Below are positions 5,464 to 28,859 of a stretch of 64,000 nucleotides of DNA, one piece after another. The position numbers and the translations under genes were made by a program. Location of the stretch: NCBI GenBank assembly GCA_030704615.1, contig CM060733.1:61690001-61754000 (forward strand). The letters run 5' to 3'. The stretch is from Takakia lepidozioides (Eukaryota > Plantae > Bryophyta). Every line of letters begins with the position of its first letter. Within the stretch, counting starts at the first letter, position 1. A model generated the notes under the pieces. It did not search any database. It was given only the letters and a program-made list of their open reading frames with translations, and was not told where the DNA came from.

Positions 5464-7320
5464 TCACCAGTAATCCCCGCAAGAACAAACCCCATCTTCA
5501 AAGTGGTGAAAGCGGTTAGCATCCTGTACAACAATTGCGCGGCCAACAATCTTTGAGATGAACTTGGTGGAGGTGTGGCAGTCACCACAATTTTCCAGAA
5601 AAAACTGTTTCCCCCAGTAATCCCCGCAAGAACAAACCCCATCTTCAAAGTGGTGAAAGCGGTTAGCATCCCGTACAACAATTACGCAGCCAACAATCTT
5701 TGAAATGAACTTGGTGGAGGTGTTGCAGTCACCACATACCCGAAGATTCTTGATGAGCCGGAGTGTACTCCTAGGGGCCGTGCTGATCAGCCCAAAACCA
5801 ATGGCCAGCTTCTCACTGTGGTGACAAAGAGAAAATTCCTTTTGCTCCTCCCCCACATCATGCAATACAAAGCGTGTGTCAGGCAGGCACATACCCTGCC
5901 TCCTTCATCTGTCCAGACAATCTTATCAGCTGAGCATGGATTTCCTTAATTTTGGGGTGCAATTTGTCATCTACAACAAAGGTGTGCACCCTATTGCCAA
6001 CCTCAATGCAGCAGTGACTTGGCTCATTCTAAGCCCCTCTGACCTTCATCATGTTTCGTGCCTTTGCACTATCGTCCCACCTGCCAGCTGTAGCATAGAT
6101 GTTTGATAGCAACACATAAGTCGCAACATTATGTTCATCCCACTTGAGAATAGATGTTGCTGCACGTTCAGCCATCTCCACATTGCCATGGATTCTGCAA
6201 GCACCAAGCAAGGCCCTCCAAACCATAGCATTTGGTTTCATTGGCATTTTGTTAATAGCTCCTCTGCCTCATCCAATTGCCCCATATGTCCAAGAAGGTC
6301 CACCATGCAGCCAAAGTGCTTTACTGTCGGAGAGACATCATGATGTTGACTCAAGGAATCAAAGTTGCGTCTTCAGCAGAGAGAAGACATATAAAGGTGA
6401 TACTGTCCAGCTTCAAGCTTTCTGTTTGCATTCCTTCATAATATAGTTGTAGGGCTTCCCTATGACAACCATGCTGGGCATATTCTGCAGTCATAGCATT
6501 CCAGGACGCCACATCTCGATCAGCCATATTGTTGAACACTCCATTTGCATCCTCCATGCTCCCACATTTGGCATACATGTCCACGAGGGCATTATTTAGA
6601 GTGACATTTGGTACAATACCAGCTCTGACGATGTCACCATGGACCTCTTTGCCCTTTTCCAAGGCTGCCACCCTTGCACATGCATTGCAAACACAAAAAA
6701 ACGTGATGTGATTGGGCTTCATCTCTTCTTGCATCATTTGCTCATATGTCTGCAAAGCCTTAGTCCCGTGCCCTGCTGTGCATATCTTGCAATCATTGCG
6801 TTCCACGACACCACATCATGTTCAGCGGTAGTGTCAAACACTCCCTTTGAATCTTCAATGCTCCCACATTTGGCATACACGTCCACAAGGGTACTGTGCA
6901 GAATAACATCTGGTACACTTCCAGCTTTGACGATGTTACCATGGACCTCTTTGCCCTTTTCAAGAGCTGCCAAGCTTGCACATGCCTTGCAAACACAAAC
7001 AAACGTGATGCGGTTGGGCTTCACCCTTTCCCACATCATCTGCTCAATACATCTTCAATGCTCCCACATTTGGCATACATGTCCACCAGGGCAGTGTTCA
7101 GAATGACGTCTGGTACTATTCCAGCTTTGACGATATCACCATGGACCTCTTTGCCCTTTTCCAAGGCTGCAAGGCTTGCACACGCATTGCAAATCAAACA
7201 AACGTGATATGGTTGGTATTGATATTTGCTCATAGGTCTCCAAAGCCTCCATCCTAGACCGTGCTGTGCATATTCTGCGATCATCACGTTCCATGACACC
7301 ATTCCATTGCGTTCCATGGA
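5464..7320 (-). pseudogene. PLS-class PPR-E-DYW RNA editing factor; 5'-truncated, frameshifted, with an internal deletion and a duplicated DYW C-terminus
   Basis: PLS repeats (MYAKCGS, VVSWNAMI, ACASLAALEKGKEVH) lie in shifting frames. E1/E2 motifs VWRALLGACRIHG and YVLLSNIYA. DYW motifs [15 protein letters not shown] and [15 protein letters not shown], the last present twice. Confidence 0.9.
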
Positions 7321-7321
7321 A

Positions 7322-7642
7322 TGTGAACGCCCTCGTTGCGTAGGGACGCGTTTGGAAAGCACGGAGACAACTGTTGTACGAGGAAATGCACGATGAGGGT
7401 AACAAAACCCTTGATTGGGGTGGCCATGTATGTGACGACGTGGCATACATCTGTCGTGCGCATACATATCGCTACACAACTACATCGCTGTCCAAAACCA
7501 CACAACACATGTGCACACCACACACTAGTATACCACTAGTCCACCACTAGTCCAGCCACTAGTCCAACCACTAGGCTACAACTAGTCAGTCACTAGGCTG
7601 CCACTATGCTGCCCACTATGGCAGTCACTAGTCCACACAATA
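7322..7642. repeat. Left part of an unclassified repeat element into which the gypsy element appears to be nested; contains a CCACTAGT-type mini-array at ~7523-7633
   Basis: Non-PPR sequence begins abruptly at ~7322. About ten CACTAG/CACTAT units with ~11-nt spacing. CTAG/CACTAGT motifs resume right after the gypsy element at 18365-18410. Confidence 0.45.
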
Positions 7643-7777
7643 GATAAGGAAGAAGAATACAAGCACAAGCTCATGCGAGCTCACAAAGCTGAAGCGTAAA
7701 CTCATGCATATATAACCTCATCACTCAAATACAAGTCAAGCCAAGTGCACCCCACGCCATGGGGAATCCACACTACG
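7643..7777 (-). repeat. Truncated 3' LTR
   Basis: 134/135 identical to 18094-18228. It is fused directly to integrase coding sequence at 7778, so the integrase C-terminus, PPT and 136 nt of LTR are missing. Confidence 0.88.
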
Positions 7778-8600
7778 AGGCAAGTGATGCTTGTTTGCTG
7801 AACCTGTAGCCCATGGCTAACCAAAGAACCTGAAGATCCCAATCTCCTAGGTGTCCCTTCTGCAAGCCATACTTTCGCAAACCCCTCTTCACCGTCTGAA
7901 CAACTCTCTCTGCTAAGCCATCGGCCTCAGGATGATCCCGAGAAGTGGTGCGGTGGTCTATCAAGGCTTTATCACACAAAGCCTGAAACTCCCCCAAAAA
8001 TTCTCTCCCTTGGTCCGTGAGTACCTCAGCTGGAGCACCAAATCGGCTAAGCACACGATCCAAGAATGCATACGCAGCCCCTTCACTAGCCTTGTCAGGC
8101 AATGGAACCAACTCAATCCACTTGGAGAAGTGCTCCACCATCACCAACACATATCTGTGGTGGCGCATAGTCAGTGGCAACGGTCCTGCGAAGTCAAGAC
8201 TCCACCTGTAGCCCAATCCCATGATTGGTAAAGGATGCAACTGTGGTGTAGGGGCGTTGAATGAAGCACGCACCCTGTCACACACCATGCACCTAGCCAA
8301 ACTGTTGCACCTCTGTATGCATACCACGCCACCAATACTGCCCTGCAGTAAACTGTGAGTGCGTCGCACTCCAAAATGCCCCAACTCCTCATGGGCATGC
8401 GCACTAACCGTGCACGCTGTGTGGGGTGAGGCACAATCCTCACCCGACCATCCTCCCACACTCGAAGTAGGTGTATCCCCTCCCACTTGAACCTCTTGGC
8501 TCGTTGCAGGATCCGATCCCTCTCCCTGGCAGTCACAATGGCTGCGTGTCTCCCGTGCGGAGGTAGTCCAACACAGCCGAATCCTCATGTATATCTCTGG
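7778..8600 (-). pseudogene. Integrase (HHCC zinc finger and DDE core), frameshifted and C-terminally truncated
   Basis: AHEELGHFG...CMVC, WSLDFAGPL, VLTDQGREF, HPEADGLAERVVQT. Confidence 0.92.
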
Positions 8601-8769
8601 CACCACCTAGCTCATCACTAGCCTCAGGTCCTCAGACACTCCGTCTACAGTCATCCCTGTTGTAGGTCCAATCTGACCTCCCGATGCCAAGATACACAAA
8701 AATGCAGATGCGTGCCATCCCGGCACCATCTCCTCGTCCGTCTCACCATGCCACCGAGCTCCAGTGTCA

Positions 8770-9230
8770 TCCTGCTGGCTCATGCATGGATTGCGACTCA
8801 ATCCATCCGCATCCCGATTGACCAAACCCGGTCGATGCACAACCTGAAAGTCATACTCCTGGAGTATAAGTGCCCACCGTGCAAGCTTCCCCGTAAGCTT
8901 GTCTGACTCCATCAACCACTTGAGTGGCTGGTGATCCGTGACAAGGGTGAAAAGATTGCCGTATAGATAGCACCTGAAGTGTGCCACGGCCCACACTGCA
9001 GCTAAGCACTCTCCCTCATATGAGCTGTACTTAGCCTCTGCAGCGTTGTTCGAGCGGCTAGCGTAAGCCACTACGAACTCTCTTCCCTCATCATCCACCT
9101 GTGTGAGCACCGCTCCAAGCCCCAGCATGCTCCAATCCGTATGCAGCTGAAAGGGACGCCCCCTGATAGGTCGTCTCAAGATAGGCGCCGAGGTCAACTC
9201 GCCTTGAGCTCTTGAAAAGCTCGTGCTCAT
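8770..9230 (-). pseudogene. Ty3/gypsy RNase H
   Basis: PFQLHTDWS, GLGAVLTQ, VAYASRS, YSSYEGECLA, LVTDHQPL, RWALILQEYDF, ADGLSR. Confidence 0.92.
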
Positions 9231-10150
9231 CTTCCCACTGCCACTCCTGGTCCACCTTGGTCAGCTTGGTTAGAGCCTTTGCAATGGTACTAAATCCCTT
9301 GACAAACCGTCTATAATAGTTTGCCAACCCCATGAAAGCTCGAACTCGGCTCACATCCGTGGGGCGTGGAATTTGTGCAATGGCCTCTACCTTAGTCTGC
9401 TGTACCCCCAATCCTCCAGGATATATCATGTGACCCAGATACTCAATCTGGTTGTGGAAAAACTTGCACTTCCCCGGATGCAACTTCAATCCGTGCGCTC
9501 TCAAGCGCTCCAATACCACCTGAAAGGTGTCTCTCATGCTCCTCCATCGTAACACTAAAGATGATGATGTCATCTATGTAGCACCGAGCAAAGTCCACCC
9601 CTGCTAGAATCCTATCCATGACTCTCTGAAACTCTGCAGGAGCATTCTTAAGCCCAATGGTAAGAACCGCCACTGATATAGGCAATCCTTGCCGTGCTCA
9701 TTGATCCCCCAGAATGCCGTCTTCTGCTTGTCCGCCTCCTTGATTGGCAACTGGTGATATCCGGATCGTAAATCCAAAGTGCTAAAGGCCTTAGCATGCC
9801 CGATGGCATCAAAGATCTCCTCTGGTGTTGGCATGGCATACTTATCGGACTTGGTCTGACGATTTACAGGCCGGTAATCACCGCACATACGTCTCTCCGT
9901 CCAATTGCCATAGACATCCTTCTTGGCTGGCATCTGTGGCTGAAGCATACTCTCCACCAGAGAGCTCCACCAAACCTGCCTCCTCCCAGAGATCTTGAGT
10001 CCTCATCTGAATCAAAGACCTCTCCATGTCACTGTATCTATAGGGTCTCCGAAAGATTGGCGTGTCAGTGGCCAACTCAACGGATCTCTTGACCCTTCAG
10101 TGCTCCCAAGTCCTTCAAACTGAAGGCAAAGCAATTCCTGTAAGCCCTCA
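9231..10150 (-). pseudogene. Ty3/gypsy reverse transcriptase (frameshifted)
   Basis: PIFRRPYRYS, RRMCGDYRPVN, LDLRSGYHQ, GLKNAPAEFQR, CYIDDII, KCKF, YLGH, FMGLANYYRRFV. Confidence 0.93.
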
Positions 10151-10589
10151 GGAACCGCCGTATACGTCGTCTCTCTCCTCCGGTGACAATGGGTCCAATG
10201 TCAGGCTCCCAATTGTCCTCCGTAACTGCAACCTTAAGTCCAGTGGGCTTAGAGGTAGAGGACGCGTCCAGTGGTTGCTATGTTGCAACCTCTTGAGCAG
10301 TACTCCCTGCCTGCTCAGTCAATGACAAGGCCTCATCCTGCCCCATCATCTCATCCTTGAGGACCTCCTCAACCCGAGAAGAATCCCCAACCTCATCCAT
10401 CACAGCCGCCTTGGCTGCCAACTCCCTCTGAACCTCGAGCACCTCCCACGTGTGCCATGGATGCATGCACCCCGTGGTCCTCACATGCTCGCCCCCACTC
10501 ACTGCCTGTACCGTCTCGGTAGGCAGAGAGACCATTGAGGGAAGTGTACTCCGCACTCTGCGTTGCTCAGCCAGCCAAGCTGATAATCC

Positions 10590-11495
10590 AGGTCAAGCAA
10601 TTGAGATCCATTGCTTGCCCCAACACTTGACGACGTGATGCCTCAGAAAGAGACGACACCGCCGTGGTACCAGTGGTAAAACCCATTGCCCGCTCACGCT
10701 CGTCAGCATTAGGCTCCACTAACTGCTGCAACTGAGCATCCCACAGGAGGCCAGGTCCACTATCCCGGAAAGCATGCGATCCTGGGAAGCTGAGCAGTGT
10801 AGGTAATGCTGCTCGTGGTTGACCCACCTTGTTGACCACTGCCAAAGGCGAACGGTCATCGTGTCTCACACGCTGAGACTGCCTCCCTGTGTCCAGAATG
10901 TTATCCACTGTGAGATGTGCTGGCCGCTGCACCCCCCATCAAATGCACGCTTGAGCAGTGCGGGTGACATCAAGTTAGTCCACCATAGCCGTGGACGATG
11001 AGCCCGTGACCCACTGTAGCTGCATCTAGCAACACTGCTGACCCAAGCCACGACCGGACTTGATGCACACTGGCCATCACCCTGGCCCGAGAATCGCCCA
11101 TCAGTGGCACATTCTCCAAGATGTATGCTGGAGATACAGCTTGATGAAGCTGCAAGTGGCGCAAAACCCGCACCATCTCCCAAAACAGACCGACCTCGAG
11201 TCTCGCAATCCATTGCCATGCCCGGCTGATGAATGCCCTTGGCAGGGCCAACCTGCCACTACCAGATCAATGGAGCCAACCCGCTCCAAATCCTGCGCCC
11301 CCAGCAACGAAATGTCTGCTGAAGAATTGCTCCGACAACAACTCAGGTACCGCTGCACCAACTGAGCAACATGGCGAAGTGAAACGTGCAGTCTCATCCC
11401 TCTCCACATACAGGTAACGCCGAACTCGTACACCTGCTGTAACACAGCAGCCAATCCGGTGCTGATCCCGCCAAACAAGTCCAGAAGACAAATGC
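10590..11495 (-). pseudogene. C5 DNA cytosine methyltransferase domain (DNMT3-like) inside the retrotransposon polyprotein; split by single-base frameshifts
   Basis: Motif I LLDLFGGISTG (Phe codon 11473-11475). Motif II YLYVERD. Motif IV IDLVVAGWPCQGHS (Cys codon 11242-11244). GLFWEMVR. Motif VI YILENV (11108-11116). Motif VIII AHRPRLWWTNL (~10970-11005). Motif IX ERERAMGF (~10680-10700). Motif X RRQVLGQAMD (~10605-10635). Confidence 0.92.
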
Positions 11496-11899
11496 CTTCA
11501 TCCGATACTGCCACACAATAGGTGTGGTGTCCAATGGAGACAATTGAGGTGGTCCTGGTGCAATCCCCACACTCTCCTCCTCTCCTGACGGTACAAAAGC
11601 CTCCACCCAGGCTTGTTGCACCCGTCGATCAGCATCCCGCTGCAAATCCTTGCTCGTGCCCCACAATGGAGTCTGAGCAACCATGGTAGGCAACTCCGCC
11701 ATACCATACATGTCATCCTGCTCTCCGGAGGTGGTACATCCTCTGAATGAGCATTGCCCTCAAGCAACTCTCTAGGCCAACTCACTGCCGCTGTGAATGC
11801 TGCTAGTGTCGGCATCTTGCCTCGCTGGGCAACCGCAACTCCTCCTATGAACGTCACAGGGAGCTGCACACGCCGGCCCTCCCCTGACTGCCATGCAGG

Positions 11900-12270
11900 C
11901 CTATAGGAAGCTGACTCCTCCCAAAAATCCAGGGTGAAGCCCATGGGGTACAACACTGCCCACCAACCAGGACATCGTATGAGACTGCGTCTGTCACAAT
12001 GGCCTTGGCTCGCATCACTGAGCCATCTGTAGGGTGATCCGCCGTAGTCTGATAGCCAACTCACGCCGTGTCATGCCCCGAGCCTGCTCCGATCCTCCCA
12101 GAGACGTCTGTATCTGGAAAGGACAAGGCTCCATATCCGCCTCCGTGAGGCCCAAGCCTGCAATAGCAGCTCTGCCCAGCATCAATGGCTGAGCTCCCGA
12201 GTCCAACAAGACCCGCAGTGGCCGGTACCTCTTGCCTGCCGGTCCACTCAAACAGAAAATGCCATCCTGG
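11900..12270 (-). pseudogene. Retroviral-type aspartic protease
   Basis: RVLLDSGA active-site motif at ~12195-12215, followed by a YDVLVG-type C-terminal motif at ~11965-11985. Confidence 0.8.
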
Positions 12271-12849
12271 TTGTCTAACATGACAACTCCAGGTGTCACC
12301 ATGGCGCGCTCAATGGCTGGCCTAGCTGGCAGCTCCATCAACCTGGCAGCTGCAGCTTGCCATGGCGCCGCCGTGGCAGTCTTGACCCTCAAATCCGAGG
12401 ATCCCTCCGGCACTACACCTCCCACTATCTCCGCAGAAGATGAAGTAACCTCCCCACTCTCACAGAGTGTAGCTGCCAGCCTGAACACCTCAGCTGGTCT
12501 TACCCCCGCGTCGCAATCATGGTAGCCGAGAACAATGGAGCCTGGCACACAGATGTGGCCGCTCCTAGCAGCACACTAGCTGCCGTAGCCTTGGCAACAC
12601 TAGGTAGTGGTGCTACCCGTGTAGCTCTCCCCCCAATGGCATAGTAACCTCCGCCTCGGTAACAGTCGGGCGAGAACTAGGTGCCATGGATGGCGTCGAC
12701 ACTGTCTCCGCCAATGTGAATGACTGAGGAAGCCTAGCCTGACGGCTTGCCTCCCCACGCTGTGGATCCAACTCCACCTCTGCACCTCGTGGCTCAGGAA
12801 CTCGTGCTGCTCCTCGAGTCACGGCTGCAGCAGACTCCACCTGCACTAG

Positions 12850-14420
12850 TGGTAGTGCTGCTCCACACATGAATCCCATGCCTCCCATATCTCCTCCCTC
12901 AGGAGCAGGAGGTGGACCATCCGGCCCTTAGCCGGTACCACCTGAGCTGTAGCCATGGCAGCGAGCCTCTGCTCTAGCTGCTGAAGCCGGTTGGCCATGC
13001 CTTGGTCAACACCCTGACCTCCGCGTCCTTGGCCATGTTGAGCTTGCCCTTGGCCTGCACCTCGTGGCTGGCCACCTCGTCCTCTCTGGGCTGCTCCACC
13101 TCGCCCCCGGCCACCATTGTTCCCTTGGAACTGGCCTGGGCGCAACTCAGGATGCAAACCATAACACTGGGCCTCTCCATGCCCGTGCTTGCCACAATGC
13201 CCACACTGCAACTGTGCAGGCTGTGCATGTGCCGCCCTTTGCCTCCCTCTGGGCAATCTTCTTGACATGGGGTCCTCCACATGTCCAGCACACCACATCC
13301 GCCCGTTGTTGGCCAGCAAATGAAGGGAGAGACCCCTGCATCTGAGGTCCTCTCTGCCCTTCCCTGAGCTTCACCTGAGCCCCCTTGTTGCCTTGAGCAC
13401 GTTGAGGTAGTGGTTGGCTAGGAGCACCACTACCCCGTGGTGTCTCCTTAGCAAATCCCACCATGACCACTCGTTCCTCCACCATGTTGAGCTCTATCCG
13501 CTCTGCCAGCAAAAACACATTTGCTAAGGTGGGTTGGGCCGCTTGTAGGAGAGTTGCATCCCGCACCCTTCTCCTCAGCTCCTTGTCCAATATCCCATAC
13601 CAGAATTGGACTGCCTGAGCTTCCGTAACCCCTTGGGTTACATTTATCAAGCGCCTCATGCGAGTGAAAGCCTCCCTCAAGCTCTCGGTCGGCTTCCGTT
13701 GGAACTCTTGCAAGCTCCGCAACTTCTCTCTGTCCTCACCCCTTGGTAGTTCCCTCTCAACTCTTCGAAGAACTCCACAACAGGGTTGAAGGCAGGCACG
13801 GCTAGTGCTGGTGCGGTAGTGGCTTGGGTGGACGTCGTAGCTACTGTACCACCAGTCCCACTAGTCCCTGCTACTTGCTGAAGCTGCCGGTGCAGCGGCA
13901 GGTGTAGCCACTGCCCTCGTGGCTCTAGTGCCCCTAGTGATGGAGACATAGTCGGGTGACCAGTACATCCTCCACTCCTCGATCTCAACCTCATGCCCCC
14001 GCCTGAACTCATGGTAATCATCCATAGGCGGCCCCTCAAGGTGCTGAAACAGCCCCTTCCATGCCATGAAAGGGCGTAAATAGTTGTGGATTGCGCATTT
14101 GCTGCAAATCACACCAACTATCAAACTCTTGGATAAAATCATCCAACTCGATGGTGCCCCCCCCAGAGTACCTTCGTGGCCCCTTGGTAGCTCCATACAT
14201 CTCCTCCATTGTGTCCCACAACAATGGCAAAGAAACAACTTGCACCCGCCGGTATGAGTCCTCCTGATTCACAATCCGAATCAGAACCTTCCGTGGAAGA
14301 CACAGGAGGTGAAGGTGGCCTAAACCGCACACCTCGTCTCGTGTACCCACTAGTATCGCTAGTGCTCGAACCGGCACTGTCCCCAGCAACTAGTGGCACC
14401 TCCGTGTTGACACTCAACCG
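12850..14420 (-). pseudogene. gag (capsid-like region, two CCHC-type zinc knuckles, RGG-rich tail), frameshifted
   Basis: LDDFIQEFDSW, LREAFTRMRRL, AVQFWYGILDKELR, CWTCGGPH, CGHCGKHGHGEAQC, GGRGRGG repeats. Confidence 0.82.
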
Positions 14421-15099
14421 GTCATGAACATGTCCCTAACCCCCTCTCCACAAGGTAACCGGGTAGAGAACCTGTTGCGGCTTATGGTTTGGAATACTAA
14501 GTTCCTAACATAGCCTACACCTGTACCTGCATCCACCGCAAGCACTCCTATGGTTGGCTGGTCATCACCTCCAACCTCACCACAGAGAAACAATGATGGT
14601 CTGGCTGGTCATCACCCCAGCCTCACCATCGACAGCATGCTCTAGGACTGGCCGTGATCAAATCCGGACCAATCACCTATAAAAACAAGCGCCCACACAA
14701 AACTAGCATGGCGCACAGTCAAGCATGCAGGTATGGAGGGGATCCAAACACAAGAAATCAGAACGACAACTCCCCCACACCCAAAAACAAGGTGTTGCTC
14801 TCCTGCAAGGACACCCCCAGCCCAAACCCGGACTGACTCTTGCCTCCACCTACGGAAAGGTCTTGGCCTAATGAGAGGGTGGAAACTACGAGGAAGAGAA
14901 GCTAAAGCAATGCCTAACCCCAGCATGCCCTCATCCCAACACTCTTCCTCTCCTCTCTTCCCTCACTTGCATGACCATGGGAATATCATGAAGATACTCC
15001 TCAAACCGCCCTCCACGAGCTTCAAAATTCGGCCTTCCAGACCACATGCCAGTCCTTAGGCAGTCCACCAGTGCCTCCACGAGTCAGCACAGGCCGTCC

Positions 15100-16562
15100 A
15101 CAGGTCAACACGGGCCACCACAGACCAGCACGGCCCACACAGCTCACTGGTCAGAGCCGTCACAGTCCCACAGGCCACTAGGCACAGCCTGTCACAGCCC
15201 CTCATAGCCGTCACAGCTCGCCACAGCCTGTCACAGCCCGTCACAGCCCCACAGGCCACTGGGCACAGCCTGTCACAGCCCTCACAGCCCCAAGGCCTCA
15301 GGCACGCCTGACACAGCCCTCACAACCCGTCACAGCCCCACACAGCCTGTCACAGCCCCGCACAGCCCGTCACAGCCCCACAGGCCACTGGGCACAGCCT
15401 GTCACAGCCCCTCACAGCCCCAAAGGCTCAGGCACGGCCTGACACAGCCCCTCACAGCCCGTCACAGCCCCAACCCCAAAGGCCTCAGGCACGGCTTGTC
15501 ACAGCCCCTCACAGCCCCAAGGCCACGGGCACAGCCTGTCACAGCCCCTCACAGCCCGTCACAGCCCCACAGGCCACTGGGCACAGCCTATCACAGCCCC
15601 GCACAGCCCGTCACAGCCCCAGGCCACTGGGCACAGCCTGTCACAGCCCTCACAGCCCCAAAGGCCACGGGCACAGCCTGTCACAGCCCGTCACAGCCCC
15701 AAAGGCCTCAGGCACGGCTGTCACAGCCCCTCACAGCCCCAAAGGCCACGGGCAGCCTGTCACAGCCCCTCACAGCCCCAAAGGCCACGGGCACAGCCTG
15801 TCATAGCCCTCACAGCCCGTCACAGCCCCAAAGGCCTCAGGCACGGCCTGTCACAGCCCCAAAGGCCTCAGGCACGGCCTGTCACAGCCCGTCACAGCCC
15901 CAAAGGCCTCAGGCACGGCTTGTCACAGCCCCTCACAGCCCCAAAGGCCACGGGCACAGCCTGTCACAGCCCTCACAGCCCAAAGGCCACGGGCACAGCC
16001 TGTCATAGCCCCTCACAGCCCGTCACAGCCCCAAAGGCCTCAGGCACGGCCCGTCACAGCCCATCACAGCCCGTCACAGCCCCAAAGGCCTCAGGCACGG
16101 CCTGTCACAACCCCTCACAGCCCGTCACAGCCCCAAAGGCCTCAGGCACGGCCTGTCACAGCCCTTACAGCCCGTCACAGCCCCACAGGCCACTGGGCAC
16201 AGCCTGTCACAGCCCCTCACAGCCCCAAAGGCCACGGGCACAGCCTGTCACAGCCCCTCAGGCCTCAGGCACGGCCTGACACATCCCCTCACAGCCCGTC
16301 ACAGCCCCAAAGGCCTCATGCACGGCCTGTCACAGCCCGTCACAGCCCCTCACAGCCCGTCACAGCCCCAAAGGCCTCAGGCACGGCCTGTCACAGCCCC
16401 TCACAGCCCATCACAGCCCCAAGGCCATGGGCACAGCCCCAAAGGCCATGGGCACAGCCCTCACAGCCCGTCACAGCCCCCACAGGCCACTGGGCACAGC
16501 CTGTCACAGCCGCACAGCCCGTCACAGCCCACAGGCCACAGGGACAGCCCGTCACAGCCCCA
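15100..16562. repeat. ~1.45-kb minisatellite in the retrotransposon leader (core TCACAGCCC; higher-order units such as GTCACAGCCCCAAAGGCCTCAGGCACGGCCT)
   Basis: Directly visible: dozens of TCACAGCCC cores interleaved with AAAGGCCTCAGGCACGG or AGGCCACGGGCACAG modules. Confidence 0.97.
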
Positions 16563-16929
16563 TCCATGGCCGCTCTGGCAGTTTAGCCATTTCTCCAAGG
16601 GGTTTAGCCACGCCAAGTGAGGGTTTGTGTCTCTTGGACTCTAGGCTTCTTTCCACCGAGCTATGGCGGCTGTGAGGAAATTAACAAGGTATCTTGCTCT
16701 TTCGGCTCCCACACACCACCATAGTAGCCCTAAGCCATGAGGTGGTTGCCACAAACCAAGCCTTCTTTCTCACTTAGCCTCCCAAACATGCCACTAAACT
16801 CACTGGCAAACAACCAAGCCCTGCTGGTTCCCAGCCCTTGTGAACACTCATTCAAGCACTCTCCTTGGCCATAGCATCTATCTTAGAGCCTATTCCAGCC
16901 CCCTACACCTGCTGCTTCAAGAGTTGCGC

Positions 16930-17420
16930 TCCCTTCAAGCTTGAAGTTGAAACCCCAACTCACATAGGCCCTACAAGTGCTTTTCTTTCACTCCAAGTGG
17001 AAACCAGCCCTAGACCTTCCGTTCTAGCTCTCTAAAGCTTGAAAACAAGAGCCTCAATGGGCTGAAGGCATGCTCCACACATGCCCCACTCTCACCATAA
17101 GAGAATCAGTTCCTTTGCTTCATTTCTTGCACCCACAAACCTGAAAATACAAGCTTCAGCAGGCTGAAAGCATGCTCACATGCCCTACAGGGAAACCAGC
17201 CCCTTCCTTCCTTTCTTGCACTCCCACACCTGAAAGTGCAAGCCTTCACCAGGCTGATAGCATGCTCCACACATGCATTGCCCTCACATAAGGGAAGTCA
17301 GCCCTTCCCTCTTCCTTGCTTGCCCTCCAAGCTTGAAGATGGAAGCTTCAATGAGCTGAATACATGCTCCACACATGCAACCTTTTCACACAAGAGATAT
17401 CAGCCCCTATCTTGGCTCCT
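16930..17420. repeat. Degenerate tandem repeat, about 4-5 units of ~90-100 bp, in the retrotransposon leader
   Basis: Recurring ...TGAA...AAGCTTCA...GCTGAA..CATGCTCCACACATGC at ~17036, 17140, 17229 and 17330. Confidence 0.7.
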
Positions 17421-18076
17421 TGGCTCCTTGATGCTCTCTAAGACAAGACTAAGCACTCCACAGCCTTTGCCAAGCTCCTGAAACCCTAAGGCTTACATTT
17501 CCAGCCACAAGACACTTCTCTTGTGGTGCAAGAGCTCTTCTTCCAAGCTCTGAGACCCTAGGTGCACATTCCATGGCCTTGTCGCACCTCTTAGATCCTG
17601 TTCCAGCCCTGCTCTTGCCATGACAAGAGCCCTCTCAATGTTGAAGCTCGAGATTGAAACCCAATCTCACCATACTCCACAAAGTGCACTGATTTGCCCC
17701 AAGCCAAATCAGCCCTTTCGCTTGGTCTTGCAATCCTTCACACAATGAAAGCTCGCATTCCCAAGTCCAGTTCTCAGCTTTGCCACCAAAGCCACTATAA
17801 CCTGCTCTTGACTGGTCCTCTTCCCAATCGTGCTTGCTCATGCATGTACACAATCTGAAACCATCAAGGTGCTCTGGAATTACCTGCAGCATGGTGCTTT
17901 CATCTCTGAAGCTGAAGATCGAATGCCAAGGTCTACCACCTCGTAACCCACATCGCCTCCGTTTCTAACATCCAAGAGCTCCACGGTGCTCCTTGCATAA
18001 CAACTTGGTTTCTCTCATTCTCAAGCAAAAACCACAAGTACTACAACTAACTCGTATCTGGCACTCACAGATACGA

Positions 18077-18093
18077 GCTGATCTTTCTCGAGT
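18077..18093 (-). promoter_or_regulatory. Putative self-priming primer-binding site
   Basis: Lies immediately inside the 5' LTR. It is not a tRNA complement (no TGG start) but is the reverse complement of LTR positions 18257-18273 (13 bp perfect, 16/17 overall). Confidence 0.62.
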
Positions 18094-18364
18094 GATAAGG
18101 AAGAAGAATACAAGCACAAGCTCATGCGAGCTCACAAAGCTGAAGCATAAACTCATGCATATATAACCTCATCACTCAAATACAAGTCAAGCCAAGTGCA
18201 CCCCACGCCATGGGGAATCCACACTACGGCGCCATAGCTAGGCGCGGTGAGGCTCAACTCGAGAAAGATGAGCCTTCCGCGCTTGCCTTGTGTGAAGATA
18301 ACCACTCCAGGGCCTAAATCTGCCTTGACCCCTGGATTGACACTTGGGCCAATCCCAAATGTCA
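18093..18364 (-). repeat. 5' LTR, 272 bp
   Basis: Starts TGATA and ends TGTCA on the + strand (TG...CA with an imperfect terminal inverted repeat). Its first 135 bp after the T match the 3' LTR remnant. Confidence 0.78.
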
Positions 18365-21300
18365 ATATGTAAAAGCTAGCTATTTCCTAGCTAGTTTCAC
18401 ACTAGTGGTAAAATAACTTGACACATCTGAGCATCAAGTCCTTTGCTCAAATTTGCCATTTGAAATTTGAATACCTGTCAGAATAATTTTCGAATCATGC
18501 ATAATTTCATGAATGCATGATGTATGCTTGGGATAGCATGTACTATGTTGGATGCAGGACGATGGCAGGCATGAGGGCAGGATGGGAGGCGGGATGGGGA
18601 TGCGGGAGAGGGCATGGCCAGGGCATGCGTCATGTCCCCGCAGCGGGCACATGAGGCGCAGGAGGGCGTGCCGCGCGGCAGTTTGCGGGCGGGGGTGGGG
18701 AGGGGGTGGCGGGGGGTCCACGCTGGCTAAACCGGCTCCCTCGCATTCAACTCCAGGGCCCATCTAATGCTTGGCATTCGAGATGAAGGCTCTCCTTGAC
18801 CTTGGGAAGAAGCCATTCTTTTAGTGGCGAATAATTGCCAGATTTCGACCTCGCGCGGGTCTTGGCGACAGGGGTAAAGGGAAATGAGGCTGAAAAATTC
18901 ACACTTTTCGCCAAAAGCTGATCTGATGGGCCCACCATTCGCTAGAGGGGCTGCCACAGGGAGGCACATGGCGCCATATTGAGTGAAGACAGTTTACAGC
19001 AGAGGAGCCAGATCCCACCGACCACGTGCAGGACATCGCTGCATTCCGAGTGCGCGGGAGGACGTGGAGCCAGCTACGTTGCCCATTTTTGTACATAGAT
19101 GTACATAGATATATATGGGTAAGTATAGTATAATCTGTATAGATAAACTTTGTAGTGAAACATTTTGTAGCATATGTATGGGTAGCTTAGTGGTAAACAT
19201 CTCCCTTCTTAGCCAATCGACTTGGTGTTCAATTTCTAACACCTCAACGTTGTTTTGATAGCAACCTGGTTTGGATGATAAAGTTCCTAAATATGAAAAA
19301 GGTGGCCGCGAAGGAGGGCAAAAAGATGACTGCAGAGGAGGAGGATAATAAAAAGGGTGGCATAGGGTTACATAAACGGAAAGAGAATGTCATTTATTCA
19401 TTGTTTTTGGGATGAAAGGACACATGTCATCAAGTTTAGGGGGGAAAAAAAAACCTAAAACACACTTCTTCCTTCTTTCATTTTTTTCCTCTCCTCTCTT
19501 TAGGCCTTAGGGCTGCTTGCAAGTTGCAGAGCGTGCTTTCGCATGCACTTTATGTTAGTATCAGTAATCACTCAAGGCTGCGATTAAAGAGAGCAAACAT
19601 TGATACTTCTTATCTATGTGCCATGTAGCATTAGGCAGGGTCTTTTTGGGCCAGGGTTCAAATATGCCACTTAGTGTAGATTGACTGAAATGCAATATAA
19701 GCCAATTTAAGGTTTTCTACTTATGAATGATGGTTTAAATTTTTTTGGTGGTGTTTGGCATAATTTCTGCCTAGTCTCCAATGATGCCTAAACCCTCCAA
19801 TTTGCTATGTCAATTCTGGGTTATTCACCTCAACAAGTCTACTAGGTTTTAGGTTCATTCGCCCAATACCCATTCAAAATCTCATATTATTGCCAGCCAT
19901 TTCCACTACGCATTTTGTACAAGCGCCAGACATGCTCCTCTAAGGTTCTAATGGATGCCACTTGTGCTACAATGTAAATACCTTAAAAGAAACGCTGCTG
20001 GGAAGCTGATCTGTTCCTCTCAAATTCTCCATCCCGAGTTTGACCAAGGCAAGCGGTCCTAGTTGTGGTTAACTCGTGATTCTTCTCTGGTAGACATATG
20101 AAGCCTTCTGTCAAAGTAAGCACAAAACTGATTGGGACCACCAGTTGGGTGATTCTTGTTTCTTCTTCCTCTGTTTTTCTCTTGGTTGGCATATCTGGAG
20201 TTCATATTTTATTGATTGTGCTGAAAAAGATGGCAGTCTAGATGGATTCTGCCCACGCATGGCATGTACACTAGATCTTGAAAATTGCAGGCTTTGTTGC
20301 CCGTAATGTTGCAAACTCACATTGAGAATTAAGGCGATCACCTTACACCCATGCAGATATTCAAATCCAGCATCCCCATCTTCATTAACATCATTGCCCA
20401 CATATTACGTACCAAACAGCCTTGTGTGTCAGTGGTGCCTTTAGGGCACTTGGTCTTCCCACCCAAGGGAAGACCAGCATGATTTTGGGGCTTTTGCGAG
20501 AGTGGCCACCAGTCCAATCCACTATATGCCACCATCATGTCACTCCTACTCAATAATATCAAACAATTTTAGAATTAATTAAAAAATTTCAAATCCAGTA
20601 GAAGCTCCCTCCTTCCGTAAGATTGATTCAGAATGTCTCATCCCAACAATCCGACCAGAGAAGTGCAAGTCATATTTAGTTAGAAGTTACAGCTTCCAGG
20701 AAAGCCATTGGTGGGGAGAAGGGTGGGCAATTTGCTGCAGGGAAAGACTTGCCTGCAAAAGTCGTCAGCCCCCTGCCACAGGAATGCGTAAGCACCTTTT
20801 GCCATTATATTCCCATGGAAAGTCTGGTCTCTGGTCCTTTTTACCATGAGTCTACAGCCCCAGTTGGTTTGCAATGCATATGGCTCTGAAATATACGCCA
20901 CCTCCTCAGTAATGGTGCCCACCTACACAGTATCCCAGCACTGAATAGGAAACTGAAAAGTCAACTACAGCAAGCCTGCAAAATGTGTGAGAAAAAGAGT
21001 AGTACTTCTGTAACTTTCCTGTAAAAAGAGATGACCTGTCACGGCTGCAATTAATATCATCCCTGCTAGTTCAGTCATAACCACAGTACAGCTTCAGCTC
21101 TTACAAAGAAAACCGTGTCACACATACACACATGCAGGAGTCGTCATCCTTTGTAAAAGAGGAATGACAGAACTCTTTAGGGGCGGAGAGACAGGAAGAG
21201 AAGTTACTACATCAACCAAGAGGGACCATGGGACACAGAAGAACAACACAGTAGAACACAGAAACCAAAGAAGAAAAGCAAACCCAAGATGCTGCGGGAG

Positions 21301-22014: not shown

Positions 22015-25000
22015 TTATAATAAGGTAGGACACTTGGCGTCGAGGAAATCCCGTAGCATGCGAGCAGGCCTTTGTCCACCCATGAGCTCTGCTAAGCGCT
22101 CCAAGCGCAGCAAAGCTACTTCAGCCAAGCTCTTGCACTCATCCATCAGTGTCCGGTAATTTGCATCTGTCACCCCTGGCAACCGACGCAGTAGCTCAAC
22201 TGCGGTTGTGTTGTAGTTCTCTGCCCTGGAAGCCACAGACAGAGTTATGCATACTGTCCTCCAACATACATAGAAAGAACATGAATGTAGTACATCTTAG
22301 CAAAAGATGCAATCCGCAAGTATCAGTTCCTCACTTGTAACCTCTGATTGTCTCATACCTGATATCCCCTTCAATGAGGCCATCTTCGGTTGGCACCCCA
22401 ACTCGCATAGCTCGTTCAAGGTCGGGCTCGTCTTGGTTAGCTTTTAGGGTTGAGAAGATGTCAGCTGTCGCATGAAGGCTGCGAGACCACACAATGCGGA
22501 GGCGTGGAAAATGGAGGACTAGCAGTGACACCTTGGAGACAATGTTGGCAGGTAGTATCTCCTCTCCCATATCGTTGGCTGACTGTCACAAACATCTGCC
22601 ACACTTGAGAACTCATCATAAAACAACACCAAGGTGAGTGCTTGCACCACAATGCACCACAAGCCCTGGAAAAGGAGAGACAGAAGGTTGGGCAAGGTAT
22701 ACAAAATATTTAAGGCAAACAGGGTAGACAAATTAGGGGAAAACGGGGAGAGCATGGAAGAGAGCCCACACCTGGAGAGAGAAACTTTTGTCCTGAGAAA
22801 ACTCAATGAGCAGCACAGGGAGTCGGTAGTAACGGGTCATGGTTTCAGCTTGATGGTAGAGACGTCCAGATGTGAAACTGGAGAAGAGGTCAGCAACACT
22901 CTTTCGTTCCACACAGATATCGGGGGATAGAATGTAGTCACCCACTTCAAGAGTCACTGGCAGGATTCGCATGCCCTGCTGGTGCAGCACACTTGGAAGA
23001 CTGCTTCCGAACTCCCTCATATCCACAACAACCTGTATCCCACCCGCTGGACCCCTCACCAGTTGCAAAGGGAAACCCCAAAAACATCCTGTCCCTCTCT
23101 ACTTATTCCTATAGGCCCTTGGCCCCCCTGGGCATTACCAAGTTTCTGTTTTCTGCTCAGGCGTCCAACTTTTTTTGAGTGCAGCGGACTCTCCATTGCT
23201 TCCCTACTGCCACAAAATACGGAGGGGGTGGAAATTTCGTCCAAGCAGGACCACAATAGATCCATCTGGCAAGAAATTATGGAACTTCACATCAGGCGGA
23301 GCCAATCTAACAACAGAACTGCAGTTCTATCAGGAGACATTCTCGGTCCTCCGTGACGATAGAATCTTGCAGCCCAATTACCTGTCTGCAGCTCTGTCTC
23401 CCTCTCTTCTAAGGGCATTGGGGAGGTTTAACGGTGGGCTGCATAGTCTGCGGATAGAGACTGGTAGGGGGGACAACCTGCAGCGTGAGGACTGCATATG
23501 CCCGCACAGGGAACAACAGGGAAATCAAAAGTGAAGAACATTTCTTCTTTCACTCTCCTTTCTACTATGAGATCCGTGGGAGATTCTATTGTCAGTTCCG
23601 TGATACCCAATCTCTTACGGAGGTCTTCCATTACGAGGATCAGAAATGCTTATCAGCATACCTGCATGAAGCATTGATGCTTAGACAATCCCTTGAGAAA
23701 TAGTTGTCTTTGGACTGCTTGGTGTCTCTTTCTTGTTTCTTGCTTTCTCTTGTCCCATGAGCCCTTTGAGCTTTCTGTGGACGTTATAAAATACCATTTC
23801 ATTTCATTTCACTCTTTTAACTTTTTTGCACCCATATTATCTTCTCTTTGTCACACCTGTTGTACTCTCCTGCCATACCCTTGCCACCACTCTTCCCCTT
23901 TTCTGCTCCATCTAAACCAGTGCAGGGTCTTTGGGCACAAGGTGTAGGGCAACACATGTTGTAATGAGATAGAGAAAATGTGCAAACCTGCATTTGCTTC
24001 TCTGCTGCCTTCCGTCCTCCAGCCTTCCTGGTGGCCGCATTGAGTGTCACACCTGTGGCCGTTTGCGGTGGGGGAGTGGCATCCAACATTCTTCCATCCT
24101 GTACATTGACAAAGAGATAAGCAAGGTAAACAACCTCCACAGATTCAAGTAATGGGTCTCTTCTCAAAAACAAAAAGAGGCCGGGGAGGAGAGAGAAAAA
24201 CCGAAGTTTATAACATCAGCAGGAGATCCAAAGGCCTAAGGGACAGAGAACAGAAACAGAACAAAAGAACTACTCAAGATGGCACCCAAAGGGAAAGAAA
24301 TGGCACGAAAGGGGAAAGAAAAGGAAATAAATATTTGTAACACCTGCAGGAAGCTCAGAGAGCTTATGGGACAAAAGAAAGCAGGATACAAGAAAGAAGT
24401 TGGGGCCCCCAACAAACAGCCTGAAAACTACCAGTCAACTTTGAGAGGTTCCCTGAGTTGGAGAGTCTAGTGTAGATACGCTACCACGCATCTCAATCTT
24501 TGTAACATAACACATGTGAGGGAGTGGCTGCCTCTATAGACAGTAGTAGCCGCCCCAGATTTCATAGCAGAGAGGACAGTGAAAGAAGAAACCTGATCAA
24601 CAGGGATCATCATCGACGCCTTTTGGCGTATAAGCCCCTCAAAGGCACTATTTTCCCTCTGTATGCTGGCTTCAAACTTGCGACCTTCAGTCGAGTCTTC
24701 ATAGAACAGAAAATACACCTTGAGTGGTTGCGTTGGATTTTCTGCCTTATATACCTCCATTTCTCTCACAAAACCCATATCTGGGTCATAGACAACCACG
24801 AATAGTGGCCTTACAACCTCCAAAACACGCTGCTGACTTTCCAGCGCATAGAAGTGGACAGGTGGCAAAGGTCTAGTAGTTGTCTCCGCTTCCTCCAAAC
24901 TCTTTTCGCCATCTGCTAGCTCAAGGTTATCCTTCTCCAGCCGTTGAGGGTTTCTACTCTCCACCCCCACATCAATCAAGTCTGGAGATTCTGATGCTGT

Positions 25001-28000
25001 TGACTCAGCAACCTTCGTCTTGCCTTTTCCTGAAGACCGGGGTTTTCCACCGTGCTCATTCCCTGATGCAGCTGTGTGCCCATGTCCTACTCCCCTACCT
25101 TTCTAGAACAAAACAGTAGATTGGTACATCAGAAAGCACTCCTAGGATGCCTACTGAAGAAGAAGATGAAGACTTTGGCCGAAGCCAGTGTAACTAAGAG
25201 CCATTTTACCTTTGCGCCTACTTCATTATAATATCTGTCCATAAGAACCAAAAGCATTGTTACTAAGATGAGCGCAGAGAATGAGATCCTTGAAAAGTTT
25301 CTACATAGCCGTGGGCTACATACAGCCACCACCTGGACTGCTTGTTGCAGCTGCATTAGGACTCCTTAAACCAAGACACCATTGTCAAAGACAATACGAC
25401 CAACTGGTTCAGAGACTACTCCATAAAAGACACGTCTTCTTACCCAGTGTAAATATTGCAGACTCTAGGAAGCCTAAACCAGGCAGAATAGTGCAAGTGC
25501 ACCTTGTTGCATGGAATCTCTGAACAGATCTTCTTGAACTCACCAGTTCTCTGCCTGCCTCTCCCCCTACCATGTGTCTTCAATCCCTTGCCAATTGGAA
25601 CATCCTCCCCAACAACAATGACCTCCCTTTCATGTGCTGCCACCTCAGCAGCAGCTGCCATGAGGGCATCTTGCTCCTGTTTGTGCTCATTTTGCACCCC
25701 ATCACCATCATCTCCTCTCCAGGATCTTGGACTCCCCTTTCCATTCATGATCCCCATCCCTTTGGCACCATTTGACTTTTTCCTGCTACGGGTGCGCATC
25801 CCATGGAGTTCAGCTTTACCTAACAAGTACTTGGTCCATTCGTCTCGCATCAGCTGCACACAGGTCCAGTAGAAATGTTTGCCATCAGGAGTGCTTGTTG
25901 CAGGATATTCCAAGCTCTCTTTGAAGCATCAATCTCTCTTCCATAGGCCCACATTCAAAATTCTTCGATTTGACCCTCTGGCTACTGTGGATGTACTGAA
26001 CTACTCTGTCTTGTGAGAAGAAGCTCTTACTAGGAATGCTGGGTGCCGAAGCCACAACATGGGGTAGATCAAAATTGATGCCAATACAACAGGAATCCTG
26101 CTAGGGCCACATGGTGCACATATGGGAGGATGATTACTTTTGGGAAAGATTACTTCAGTTTTATGCTTTTTGTCCTGTGCTAGAGTGTCCCTCGGGCCTC
26201 CCACCTTTGTGTCTGTCTCCTTTCTCTGCGTCACTTTCTCCTTCTGTCCCTTGGGACCCCCCCCTCCCCCCCCCCCAAAGAGTTCTTTCTTTTTAAACAG
26301 GACATGTCAACATACCTTCTGGGGCCCATGTGTGACAACATCCTGCAGCTGTACGCACATGCGCTCATCCTTGCATGCCACCAGAACCGCCCCGCCCCCT
26401 TCTCCCCAGGCATTCTGTGACCCACGCACCTCAGTTGCTCCAATGGCCTTCACTCTCTGCCGTTCCTCCTCTATTTCCTCCAACACTTCCTGCTCACCAT
26501 GAGTGATAAGGGTGTCAGTGGAAGGCCTAAGCAAACATAAACAGTGATCGAGACAAGATGAGAGCATCACAGAAAGCCCTTCCCTTTTGATATCACTGTC
26601 TCTCTTTATGTCTGCTACCAGACTTAAAAGTCATTTGGAAATTCAGGACACACTCATGTACATCATAGACCCTGAGAGCTAGCTGGCCATGCAATCATCA
26701 GATTTAGGATTTACTCCCTCATCCCTCACATTGCCCAGATTTTGGTGCAAGCATATCTGGCTTAAGAGAATCCAAGACCTAGGAAAGATGAATTCGTGAC
26801 AAATGGTGCTATTTGTTTCAATCTGTATCCAACATAAAAGCTCCAACCCTTAGTTGATGAAACCAAGGAAAACTTTCACCTGGTTGTTTGCCAAACCCAG
26901 ACTTGCCTGTGTCTCTCAGCTACATGATTACCACAACCAGATCATTGACATGAAGTAAGAGTAGTGCAGTAAGTACCCTCAAAACCTTCCACTTTGGCAT
27001 CTCCTCCACAACAACCTCAAGCTCGACTCCCTCAACCTCCCCCACCACCCCTTCCATTCTATTACTCGCCTCTCTTGGGTCACCGATTTCATCTCCCTGC
27101 CCCAACCTTGCCTCTCCCGTCTTAGGGCCACCCAAATCATCCAAAATGCTTGAGGTACCACCTGTACTGATCGTCACATTCCCATTTATTCTCCTTCGCT
27201 TGCCACCCTCCTGATCTTCCTCCTCAGAAAGCACCCAAGGGGCATCCCTACTACCTGCTAGATTGTCAAACAAATTTAACTCAGGACCTATAGCACTTAT
27301 ACCCTCTCCTTCTGCATCACTTTCACTTGTGAAAGCAATCCTACTTCCTGTCCCAACCCTGGCAGATGGTTCTGACACAGAAATTCTAGCAGGAGCCCTT
27401 TCTGGGTCGTTGGACTTAGAACCAGGTTTCCCTTTCCAGCTGTGCCGCCCCACTCTTCGGTCTCTACCACCTAACCCTGCTCCGTTAGTCCCTTTATGGT
27501 GAACAAGCCTTGTGCCATCGGTTCTCACTAATTGATATGCACGACGCTTGGCCAACTCAAATATCTTGTGAGTAGGATTGGCGAAAATCCACGCAGATCT
27601 CACGCCCTCCGACACCCGCAAGGTGTCTAGATACTTCAGAAATGTGACCGCATCGTAGCGTTGTAGATACTCGACCAATTTCCTGAGGGTTTTGAGGTCC
27701 CCCACCAGCTGCTTTGTCTTTCGGCCCACAGTATGCCATATGGGGTCCAGCTGTCGCCTGATTATCTCATCAAAAGATTTGAGCAGTCCATTTTCAACAG
27801 TCAGGTCTTCAACATCAACTTTGTTGGTCTTTCTCAGCTCTTTCAAGCATGCATCCATGACCTCTAGTATAGCATTTTGAATTCCAGCCATGGCATTCGT
27901 CAGAGGCATTCGAATGTCAATCACTTCAGGAGGTGTCTCCTCAAGTGTACCACTCACGGACAGGTGGAAACGAGGCCAAATATACAATCTTTTCACAAAC

Positions 28001-28515
28001 AAACTCTTCATAATCCTCTCTGTCTTTGAAAAACCCGAGATCATAGCCTGTGGACGGTCGGAGAAAGCCTGCACAAACCCTTTCTTGTTGGCCTGCCGGA
28101 AAAGCCTCACAATGAAAGCCTCCGCGCAGGTCTCTGACAACCGGTGCGCGTTGTTCACGATTATTCCAGCTACTTTTTGCAATGGCACACGCGCATTCAG
28201 CATGTCTACAATCAAAATACGAGAAGTGATGAAAAACGAACCCCCTTCTGAGTAGAAATTCAAGCGTTCAGCACCTCCGTATTCATTGTTAATCTCCATG
28301 GGCAGTTGGGCTGCTGGATCCTGGTCTTGCATTTCCTCCCGAAGTGCTTGCCGCTGCGGGTCTGAGGTGGAGAGGAGAAGAAGAAGCCCATCCGACCGAG
28401 AATGCAACCGCAGCAGCGATGCCAACACTTTACATAACCCTAGCCCTGCTGCCATAACCACGACTCCATCGCCCTCCAGTAATTCTCCAACTATCTGCTC
28501 ATGGAAAGGCAACAT
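22015..28515 (-). CDS. UVH1: XPF/RAD1/ERCC4 structure-specific DNA repair endonuclease; 8 exons (28515-26977, 26489-26316, 25853-25544, ~25102-24593, 24098-23988, 23032-22772, 22582-22359, 22225-22015)
   Basis: N-terminal helicase-like domain ([32 protein letters not shown]). ERCC4 nuclease VVDMREF...[16 protein letters not shown]. HhH region LRRLPGV. GT-AG boundaries that keep frame. Confidence 0.96.
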
Positions 28516-28859
28516 TTTCCATACAATCACATATCAACACTCCTCCTCCCACACCACCTCCGCTGCCCGCCACATCTCCCGATCACAAATCCGAGAGCTC
28601 ACTTCGCAGCCGAGCTATGACCAGATTGCACAGGCATTTCACAATTCCTGAAAATGAGTGCGACGCCAGCTAGGCTCCACCCTCCCTTCTGATTGGCTTG
28701 CCACATCACTACCCCATGGCTTATTATTTAGAGAAAGAATAATACTTAGTAATAAAAGATAGTAGGTAATCATAAAGAAGGAAAAATAAAACGAAAAAAA
28801 CAGAACAACAACAGAAAAAAAAGAGAGTTGAGAGGTAACTAACTTAGTTGTCCGACAGC

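Follow-up and report, generated by a model that had tools for sequence, protein, structure and literature searches.

The window analysed here is a 64,000-nucleotide stretch of the Takakia lepidozioides (Bryophyta) genome (contig CM060733.1, positions 61,690,001 to 61,754,000). Its minus strand carries, at 7452-18423, a Ty3/gypsy retrotransposon in which gag, protease, a DNMT3-like C5-cytosine DNA methyltransferase (DNMT) domain, an in-frame stop codon, reverse transcriptase (RT), RNase H and integrase follow one another in that order. The family has split repeats, with the layout A-coding-B-A-B, and makes 4-bp target-site duplications. The window copy is probably young, is deleted at its 3′ end and belongs to an abundant family whose first open reading frame (ORF1) would encode Gag, protease and the methyltransferase together. 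On balance, and with considerable reservation, we favour the interpretation that the enzyme enters the particle, where it methylates the cDNA of the element ahead of insertion.

A DNMT3-like domain between protease and reverse transcriptase

An exact GATG duplication at each side sets the limits of the element at 7452 and 18423, rather than at 7643 and 18364 as an earlier note on this DNA had proposed. Profile searches and alignments recovered the Ty3/gypsy order of protease, RT, RNase H and DDE integrase; the RT, RNase H and rve profiles matched above their cut-offs, and those for protease and gag below them. Coding regions of the window were translated as read-through, with an X at every frame break. 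The features of the element are as follows.

18424-18427, minus strand: left target-site duplication GATG, identical to 7448-7451
18093-18423, minus strand: repeat A1, 331 bp, beginning TGTCA (left integration end), from junctions in other copies and self-comparison
18257-18269, minus strand: predicted RNA 5′ end and self-primer, exact 13-nt complement of the primer-binding site (putative start site)
18081-18093, minus strand: primer-binding site (PBS) of the self-priming type, directly after A1
15183-16530, no strand assigned: tandem array of a 10-bp GC-rich unit, about 134 copies, within a 3.9-kb leader
13486-14209, minus strand: gag, with 76-77% identity to the Marchantia polyprotein P0005 over the aligned N-terminal parts
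11726-12314, minus strand: aspartic protease region, LLDSGA near 12200 (profile and alignment to P0005)
10579-11513, minus strand: DNMT3-like C5-cytosine methyltransferase domain, motifs I-X in linear order
11242-11244, minus strand: catalytic Cys codon of the DNMT
10272-10280, minus strand: in-frame TAG (itself 10278-10280), then CAA CCA (CAR-YYA leaky context), ending ORF1
9250-10090, minus strand: RT (profile and alignment)
8805-9249, minus strand: RNase H (profile and alignment)
7778-8473, minus strand: integrase, H2C2 and DDE core, cut off at 7778 (profile; other copies diverge at 7777)
7642-7777, minus strand: remnant of repeat A2, 134/135 identical to A1 (self-comparison)
7452-7641, minus strand: repeat B2, finishing CGACA (right integration end)
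7448-7451, minus strand: right target-site duplication GATG

An RGG-rich linker extends from gag to about 12900. All eight C5-methyltransferase motifs that the earlier note had read on this strand, between the protease (~12200) and RT, are present in linear order: I (LDLFGGISTG), II, III, IV (GWPCQ), VI (ENV), VIII (AHRPR), IX and X. A frameshift-aware translation of 11513-10579, with six frame breaks and no stop, aligned 307 of 322 residues to P0005 at 74.6% identity, and the Pfam DNA_methylase profile matched one of the four native DNMT ORF pieces scanned (26.4 bits, cut-off 22; E 5.9e-6). Set beside the identities of the other domains, namely gag (as above) and protease region (52%) to P0005, and RT (77%), RNase H (85%) and integrase (88%) to the Calypogeia protein P0169, the DNMT is as conserved as the RT.

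The nature of the domain was judged on an intact relative, L001. In a sequence search of the PDB, DNMT3A was the best match among the 43 sequences listed (E 1.1e-11) and DNMT3A/B/C led the field, ahead of M.HhaI (E 6e-4) and the 4onj entry (E 1e-3). A structure model of L001 (pLDDT 73, pTM 0.79) gave DNMT3A/B/C for all the fold matches among those listed (TM ~0.63). On this predicted structure and the sequence search, the domain appears nearer to DNMT3 than to other solved C5 methyltransferases. A plant DRM-type domain is excluded, since the motifs are linear rather than circularly permuted (VI-X before I-V). PDB, fold and alignment evidence all agree with the original description: a Ty3/gypsy element whose DNMT3-like domain is intronless and non-permuted.

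Residue conservation was counted over 205 full-length domains, drawn from 345 proteins with a match. The catalytic Cys is kept in 197, the Glu of motif VI in 204 and the second Arg of motif VIII in 199; the Pro that precedes the catalytic Cys is Glu in 85, and PC is kept in 13 of 16 bryophyte-like domains. Compared with the relative L003, the window DNMT has proportions of nonsynonymous (pN) and synonymous (pS) differences of 0.175 and 0.777 over 266 codons, similar to those of the RT (0.194 and 0.688). Saturated synonymous sites (pS 0.78) with a pN of 0.18 point to an old divergence under purifying selection and not to a recent transfer; by this comparison, the DNMT is under purifying selection.

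An in-frame stop codon follows the methyltransferase

The position of the DNMT between protease and RT was correctly given in the earlier note; what must be added is that the domain closes the Gag-protease frame, with the sequence TAG-CAA-CCA at 10280-10272, in the same frame, before the RT begins. The homologous site could be aligned in 61 of 80 metagenome loci; a stop is present in 59 of these, and CAA comes next in 59. The distant loci L063, L066 and L067, whose DNMT is 47-48% identical, have TAG-CAG-TTA or TAG-CAA-TCA, and L063 retains two intact ORFs in one frame, of 1,369 and 1,047 codons. In the Klebsormidium protein P0132 and the Closterium protein P0224, the DNMT runs on without a stop.

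The window sequence fits UAG-CAR-YYA, described in the accessible part of the source as the readthrough context of tobacco mosaic virus (TMV), about 10% efficient (PMC2754532). Unlike in TMV, the context would here act, if used, between DNMT and RT, and most moss-type loci read CAA-CCC. Since the stop closes ORF1 as Gag-protease-DNMT, the enzyme would be made at the level of Gag.

Split repeats, integration ends and priming

The window copy lacks B1 and part of A2 of the A-coding-B-A-B layout. The 135-nt repeat described in the earlier note as two LTR (long terminal repeat) copies is real (7643-7777 and 18094-18228, 134/135 or 99% identical), but it is what a deletion has left of one of the two types of split repeat, not a full LTR, and the two copies do not make an LTR pair. 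Repeat A or B is carried by 37 of the 80 loci. The arrangement A1-coding-polypurine tract (PPT)-B1-two bases-A2-B2 is whole in five loci (four insertions) and the B-A junction is found in three further ones, giving eight loci (seven insertions) with B, spacer and A. For the Marchantia, Calypogeia, Riccia and Sphagnum elements, the layout is deduced from metagenome loci only. Across loci, elements start with TGTCA and finish with CGACA or a decayed form of it, and 4-bp duplications accompany all nine loci with both ends (six exact, three with one mismatch).

Contigs of two runs hold other copies with the same CGACA-GC-TGTCA junction, and copies joined at the 18423 position are preceded by the end of B plus GC. 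The junction CACGACA-NN-TGTCA is common to the window family, L001, L028, L069, L063 and L067. A2 and B2 join cleanly in six loci; L069 has 19 extra bases at this join, which is what end-joining would give.

The PPT precedes B1 and the self-complementary PBS follows A, so that B+A would be the LTR in the sense of reverse transcription and the inserted form a rotation. The 13 nt that follow A1 are exactly complementary to 18269-18257, and the resulting stem forms part of the best fold (z -8.2, for a stretch picked after the match had been seen). For B to move from the left end to the right, the cDNA ends would have to be joined and then cut at the internal palindrome. Foamy-virus integrase has been reported to cut such palindromes, according to the portion of the paper available (PMC1180852).

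The element was also compared with known element classes. A canonical LTR retrotransposon is ruled out by the PPT before B1, the start at A1, the end at B2 and the lack of a terminal full LTR pair. DIRS, PAT and Ngaro elements have split repeats and are not known to make target-site duplications; they are ruled out by the DDE integrase and the 4-bp duplications, and no tyrosine recombinase match was found in the window pieces or in the two L063 ORFs. As for chromoviruses (Tcn1, Chlamyvir), no chromodomain was found, a PHD alone being present in L063 ORF2, P0171 and P0173.

A perfect 10-bp hairpin lies at 18051-18077, directly after the PBS, and is a possible packaging or priming signal. The leader is 3.9 kb long in the window element versus only about 1.1 kb in the relatives L001 and L079. 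An empty site was looked for in the window and not found. Both flanks (18424-19105 and 7402) have a similar moderate depth, about 8,000-9,500 in run X3, from which we conclude that the element was probably inserted within another repeat.

State of the window copy

The window element has 18 frame breaks and no stops over 1,313 aligned codons. Nine of the breaks adjoin a run of at least three equal bases (29% expected); the DNMT regions of the 80 metagenome loci, scored by a different method, have the contrary spectrum, since their 24,383 codons contain 294 stops but 28 frame changes; and neighbouring host genes match contigs of run X3, which may be the source sample, with 0-1 differences and no gaps. 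For these reasons, we infer that the copy is young and that most of its frame breaks are errors of long reads that were left unpolished, in keeping with the recent activity suggested before.

Two lesions are apparently real. Other copies contain a short segment between motifs II and III that is lost here, and a deletion runs from the integrase (7778) into A2, of which it took the first 195 nt, along with the C-terminal part of the integrase, the PHD finger, the PPT and B1. We judge the latter to be real because other copies carry the integrase onward at this point.

An abundant family with relatives in bryophytes and green algae

Among the contents of the window are a PPR gene, an ERCC4-domain gene that is spliced in two runs guessed to be RNA, and two remnants of DYW domains; the PPR-DYW and ERCC4-domain genes confirm the land-plant host that had been assumed. 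In run X3, depth was 0.60-1.10 million over the DNMT and 0.84-1.13 million over the RT versus 54-90 in single-copy bins, figures that are not copy numbers, since element bins (0.5-1.3 million) and single-copy bins were read at different likeness settings and contigs were summed. A DNMT depth equal to that of the RT and far above single copy indicates an abundant family that carries the domain throughout.

A protein search with the C-terminal piece returned 106 proteins from 545 candidates, the named ones being from Marchantia, Calypogeia, Riccia and Sphagnum; Marchantia polymorpha has at least 12 annotated 'hypothetical' proteins of this element type. A profile search (78 of 7,989 proteins) added Klebsormidium, Cymbomonas and Monoraphidium, and an RT search added Closterium and Volvox proteins that also bear a DNMT domain. 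No vascular plant or hornwort was named among the matches of the C-terminal-piece and profile searches, which is a weak blank. HMMER gave 432 clusters at E 1e-30. Few names came from cluster look-ups: one yielded none at species level, and another yielded Coleochaete scutata, Calypogeia fissa and one 'uncultured Synechococcales' label. The clade's RT-integrase-PHD protein P0452 (cluster of P0174) bears the label of an uncultured cyanobacterium and is likely from a mis-binned algal contig. Protease and/or RT lies beside the DNMT in 75 of the 80 metagenome loci. Family elements are nested in or adjoin one another at L013, L059, L060 and L077.

Two layouts were found. In the first, the DNMT precedes the RT and the named members are streptophytes; in the second, it lies between RNase H and integrase, the named members are chlorophytes, and motif IV has EC in place of PC in 51 of 99. 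Examples of the second are P0096, P0143, P0156, P0166 and P0254 (Cymbomonas, Monoraphidium, Volvox), in which Pfam often misses the domain.

Phylogenies of the DNMT and RT were built by quick searches on 81 of 197 and 82 of 187 rows, respectively, the DNMT tree holding retroelement domains only; the long branch of L071, whose translation crosses frame breaks, is to be ignored. The window element clusters with bryophyte sequences in both trees. In the RT tree, a Coleochaete transcript is placed in the group, with a support of 99, that encloses this cluster. The 14 conventional gypsy RTs form a group of their own, also with a support of 99, which takes in none of the DNMT-bearing RTs; K. nitens P0132 is not sister to the bryophyte group, the deep forks being open there. 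The proposal of a DNMT-carrying gypsy lineage in an embryophyte thus stands as to the host, and extends across bryophytes; a separate land-plant capture appears unlikely, since the element seems to belong with the known charophyte ones.

A one-off capture of a host DNMT3, a nested insertion, an assembly chimera or an algal contaminant is extremely improbable. The 18 frame breaks, and the fact that no contig among those listed bridges element end and flank, could be taken that way, but the same domain order recurs in the 75 loci and in named liverwort and moss proteins, DNMT depth equals RT depth, the target duplication is exact and both trees group the element with bryophytes. The homologue and depth data refute this explanation, the domain being a property of the family.

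No RNA run was among the matches listed for the coding stretch of the element. Repeat A has thin coverage in two runs guessed to be RNA, which we do not take as evidence of expression.

Possible roles of the enzyme

We propose the following life cycle. Most ribosomes would stop past the DNMT, making the enzyme about as frequent as Gag, and RT-RNase H-integrase-PHD would come from occasional readthrough. The RNA would prime itself and, B+A being the true LTR, reverse transcription would yield BA-coding-BA; the two cDNA ends would then be joined, and integrase would cut the palindromic GACA-GC-TGTC inside the repeat to give A-coding-B-A-B. The DNMT would place 5-methylcytosine, probably at CG, on the cDNA, which is the weakest step; equally tentatively, new copies would arrive marked like host DNA and partly silenced. 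The PHD finger of the integrase would guide target choice. Related Dnmt3 domains from DIRS elements of Symbiodinium methylate CG in yeast, according to the accessible text (PMC5890265).

Several observations weigh against this proposal. As to readthrough, 55 of the 61 alignable loci have CAA-CCC, short of the full CAR-YYA, and an ATG lies 2-4 codons past the stop in four of the six loci shown (L001, L003, L066, L070; none so close in the window, L063 or L067), making reinitiation possible. As to priming, at least 10 of 12 self-priming matches are seen in only 9 of 21 decayed loci (eight at the fixed position, one elsewhere), a level that shuffles reach in 64 of 2,000 cases. As to insertion, the mirror form A-B-A-coding-B, expected from a symmetric two-LTR circle, is absent from all 19 5′ ends, and at 13 loci only one B stands at the end; collapse of short reads or subsequent recombination might account for both. 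The metagenome loci were drawn from a small number of assemblies, and some of them represent one and the same insertion. As to methylation, the CpG observed/expected ratio is 0.47-0.62 in the element, no lower than in host genes (0.31-0.58), and hence shows no footprint of self-methylation. Lastly, the Klebsormidium domain gave no methylation in yeast, a result its authors call inconclusive in the text available (PMC5890265).

This negative yeast result would be expected if the domain were kept as a nucleic-acid-binding or structural module, or as an RNA methylase, instead of acting as a DNA methyltransferase in vivo. Production at the level of Gag would be in line with a structural function, and the replacement of Pro by Glu before the catalytic Cys in 85 of the 205 relatives is in the same vein. 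We nevertheless think this unlikely, the catalytic Cys, Glu and Arg being almost invariant across the clade and PC being kept in most bryophyte-like domains (13/16).

The integrase of intact relatives terminates in a PHD finger, for which the closest solved structures are the PHDs of CHD4, PHF12, PHF21A and KDM5. These PHDs are readers of unmethylated H3K4, a mark that DNMT3 ADD domains read too. One could therefore imagine that the enzyme, made at Gag level, acts after insertion or in trans, on the target site or host chromatin under guidance of the PHD, rather than on cDNA in the particle; the great abundance of the family would be in line with this. We consider such a role rather unlikely: the PHD sits on ORF2 and not on the DNMT, and the Klebsormidium methylome is ordinary and plant-like despite such elements, as far as the accessible text describes it (PMC5890265).

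Methylation could also serve the insertion route itself, with a strand-specific mark at the CG next to the internal attachment site telling the integrase which of the two B/A junctions to cut, or blocking autointegration. The shared junction CACGACA-NN-TGTCA does contain a CG, the propagating arrangement is the only one found (0/19 A-B-A starts), and DNMT and split repeats occur together both here and, in the published text available, in Klebsormidium. Against this, only 10 of 20 B ends retain an intact CG, the absence of the A-B-A form could be due to assembly collapse of the longer A repeat, and the co-occurrence may reflect shared ancestry, all of which makes this explanation distinctly improbable. 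A broader proposal builds on it: an old, green-plant-wide gypsy clade, present in Marchantia, with a stop-controlled, capsid-level DNMT and insertion solely of end-joined cDNA by way of an attachment site within the LTR, in which strand-specific methylation picks the propagating cut and is part of the integration machinery. We regard this combination as quite unlikely, and methylation of particle cDNA before insertion remains the role that we favour.

Relation to known elements

The closest known element is KnitGypsy-Dnmt3 of Klebsormidium nitens (de Mendoza et al. 2018, PMC5890265). As described in the accessible text, it has in common with ours the Gypsy domains, an intronless, non-permuted Dnmt3-like domain, the layout A-coding-B-A-B and purifying selection, and K. 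nitens P0132 has the same order of protease, DNMT, RT, RNase H and integrase. In contrast, the host here is a land plant and the DNMT is closed by a conserved in-frame stop, whereas in P0132 it is fused to the RT; that text gives no description of self-priming, an internal attachment site, 4-bp duplications or a PHD finger for KnitGypsy-Dnmt3. With DNMT and RT not in one open frame, the window element is a sister variant of KnitGypsy-Dnmt3 rather than a member. SymbioDIRS-Dnmt3 of Symbiodinium likewise combines a Dnmt3-like domain with A-coding-B-A-B, but is described in the same text as having a tyrosine recombinase and a DIRS-type RT, where the window element has a DDE integrase and target duplications (PMC5890265).

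EpiLTRs/DAM-LTRs are likewise LTR elements with a methyltransferase and a chromatin reader; in the available portion of their description, unlike here, the DNMT is sister to DNMT4 and closes pol, accompanied by DAM and a chromodomain (bioRxiv 10.64898/2026.05.21.726589). The self-priming PBS is shared with Tf1/Sushi and Tcn1 chromoviruses, Tcn1 being reported in mosses and club-mosses in the part of the source available (PMC6317226); unlike these, the intact L063 ORF2 has no chromodomain match, and PHD finger, DNMT and split repeats are found instead. As with foamy virus, a DDE integrase would cut an internal palindrome formed from two attachment ends, but the foamy-virus palindrome is, from the text at hand, the end-to-end junction of a two-LTR circle (PMC1180852), whereas here it lies inside the repeat, away from the ends defined by PPT and PBS.

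We found no report of such elements from land plants in the literature, although subscription papers and some supplements beyond our reach may list copies, and no account there of the stop, the priming or the internal site; the name KnitGypsy-Dnmt3 came up in a single paper. The accessible parts of PMC12344493 and bioRxiv 10.64898/2026.05.21.726589 say 'streptophytes' without naming land plants, the latter calling 'streptophytes (Gypsy-DNMT3)' previously described. Such elements are not mentioned in the available portions of PMC6453930, PMC11982613 and PMC6317226, and the supplementary text of PMC5890265, as far as accessible, had no match for Marchantia, Sphagnum or bryophyte.

Other features of the window

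Outside the element lie transposase-like fragments with DUF4218 (282-1706), which we take to be CACTA-type; a degenerate PPR-DYW paralogue with a duplicated DYW end (5467-7300); the ERCC4-domain nuclease gene (XPF-like; 22736-28533, spliced in runs X12 and X16); host genes for a bZIP protein (29363-31278), an intronless Trp/Tyr permease (32487-33668) and an aldehyde dehydrogenase (44088-44513); and a long PPR ORF, intact and accompanied by a DYW remnant (60444-63477).

Implications

How a retrotransposon benefits from encoding a cytosine methyltransferase has been a question since 2018, and the known hosts are awkward to study. The presence of this element type in Marchantia polymorpha makes the question testable with methylation mutants and long-read assemblies. 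The stop past the DNMT provides a first hint of dose: the enzyme would be on a par with Gag, and RT and integrase would be made in a fraction of that amount. The arrangement of the repeats suggests that the DDE integrase does not act on the ends generated by reverse transcription, which neither textbook LTR models nor LTR-finding programs would expect. Finally, bryophyte DNMT counts and methylome models may overlook a multi-copy source of the enzyme.

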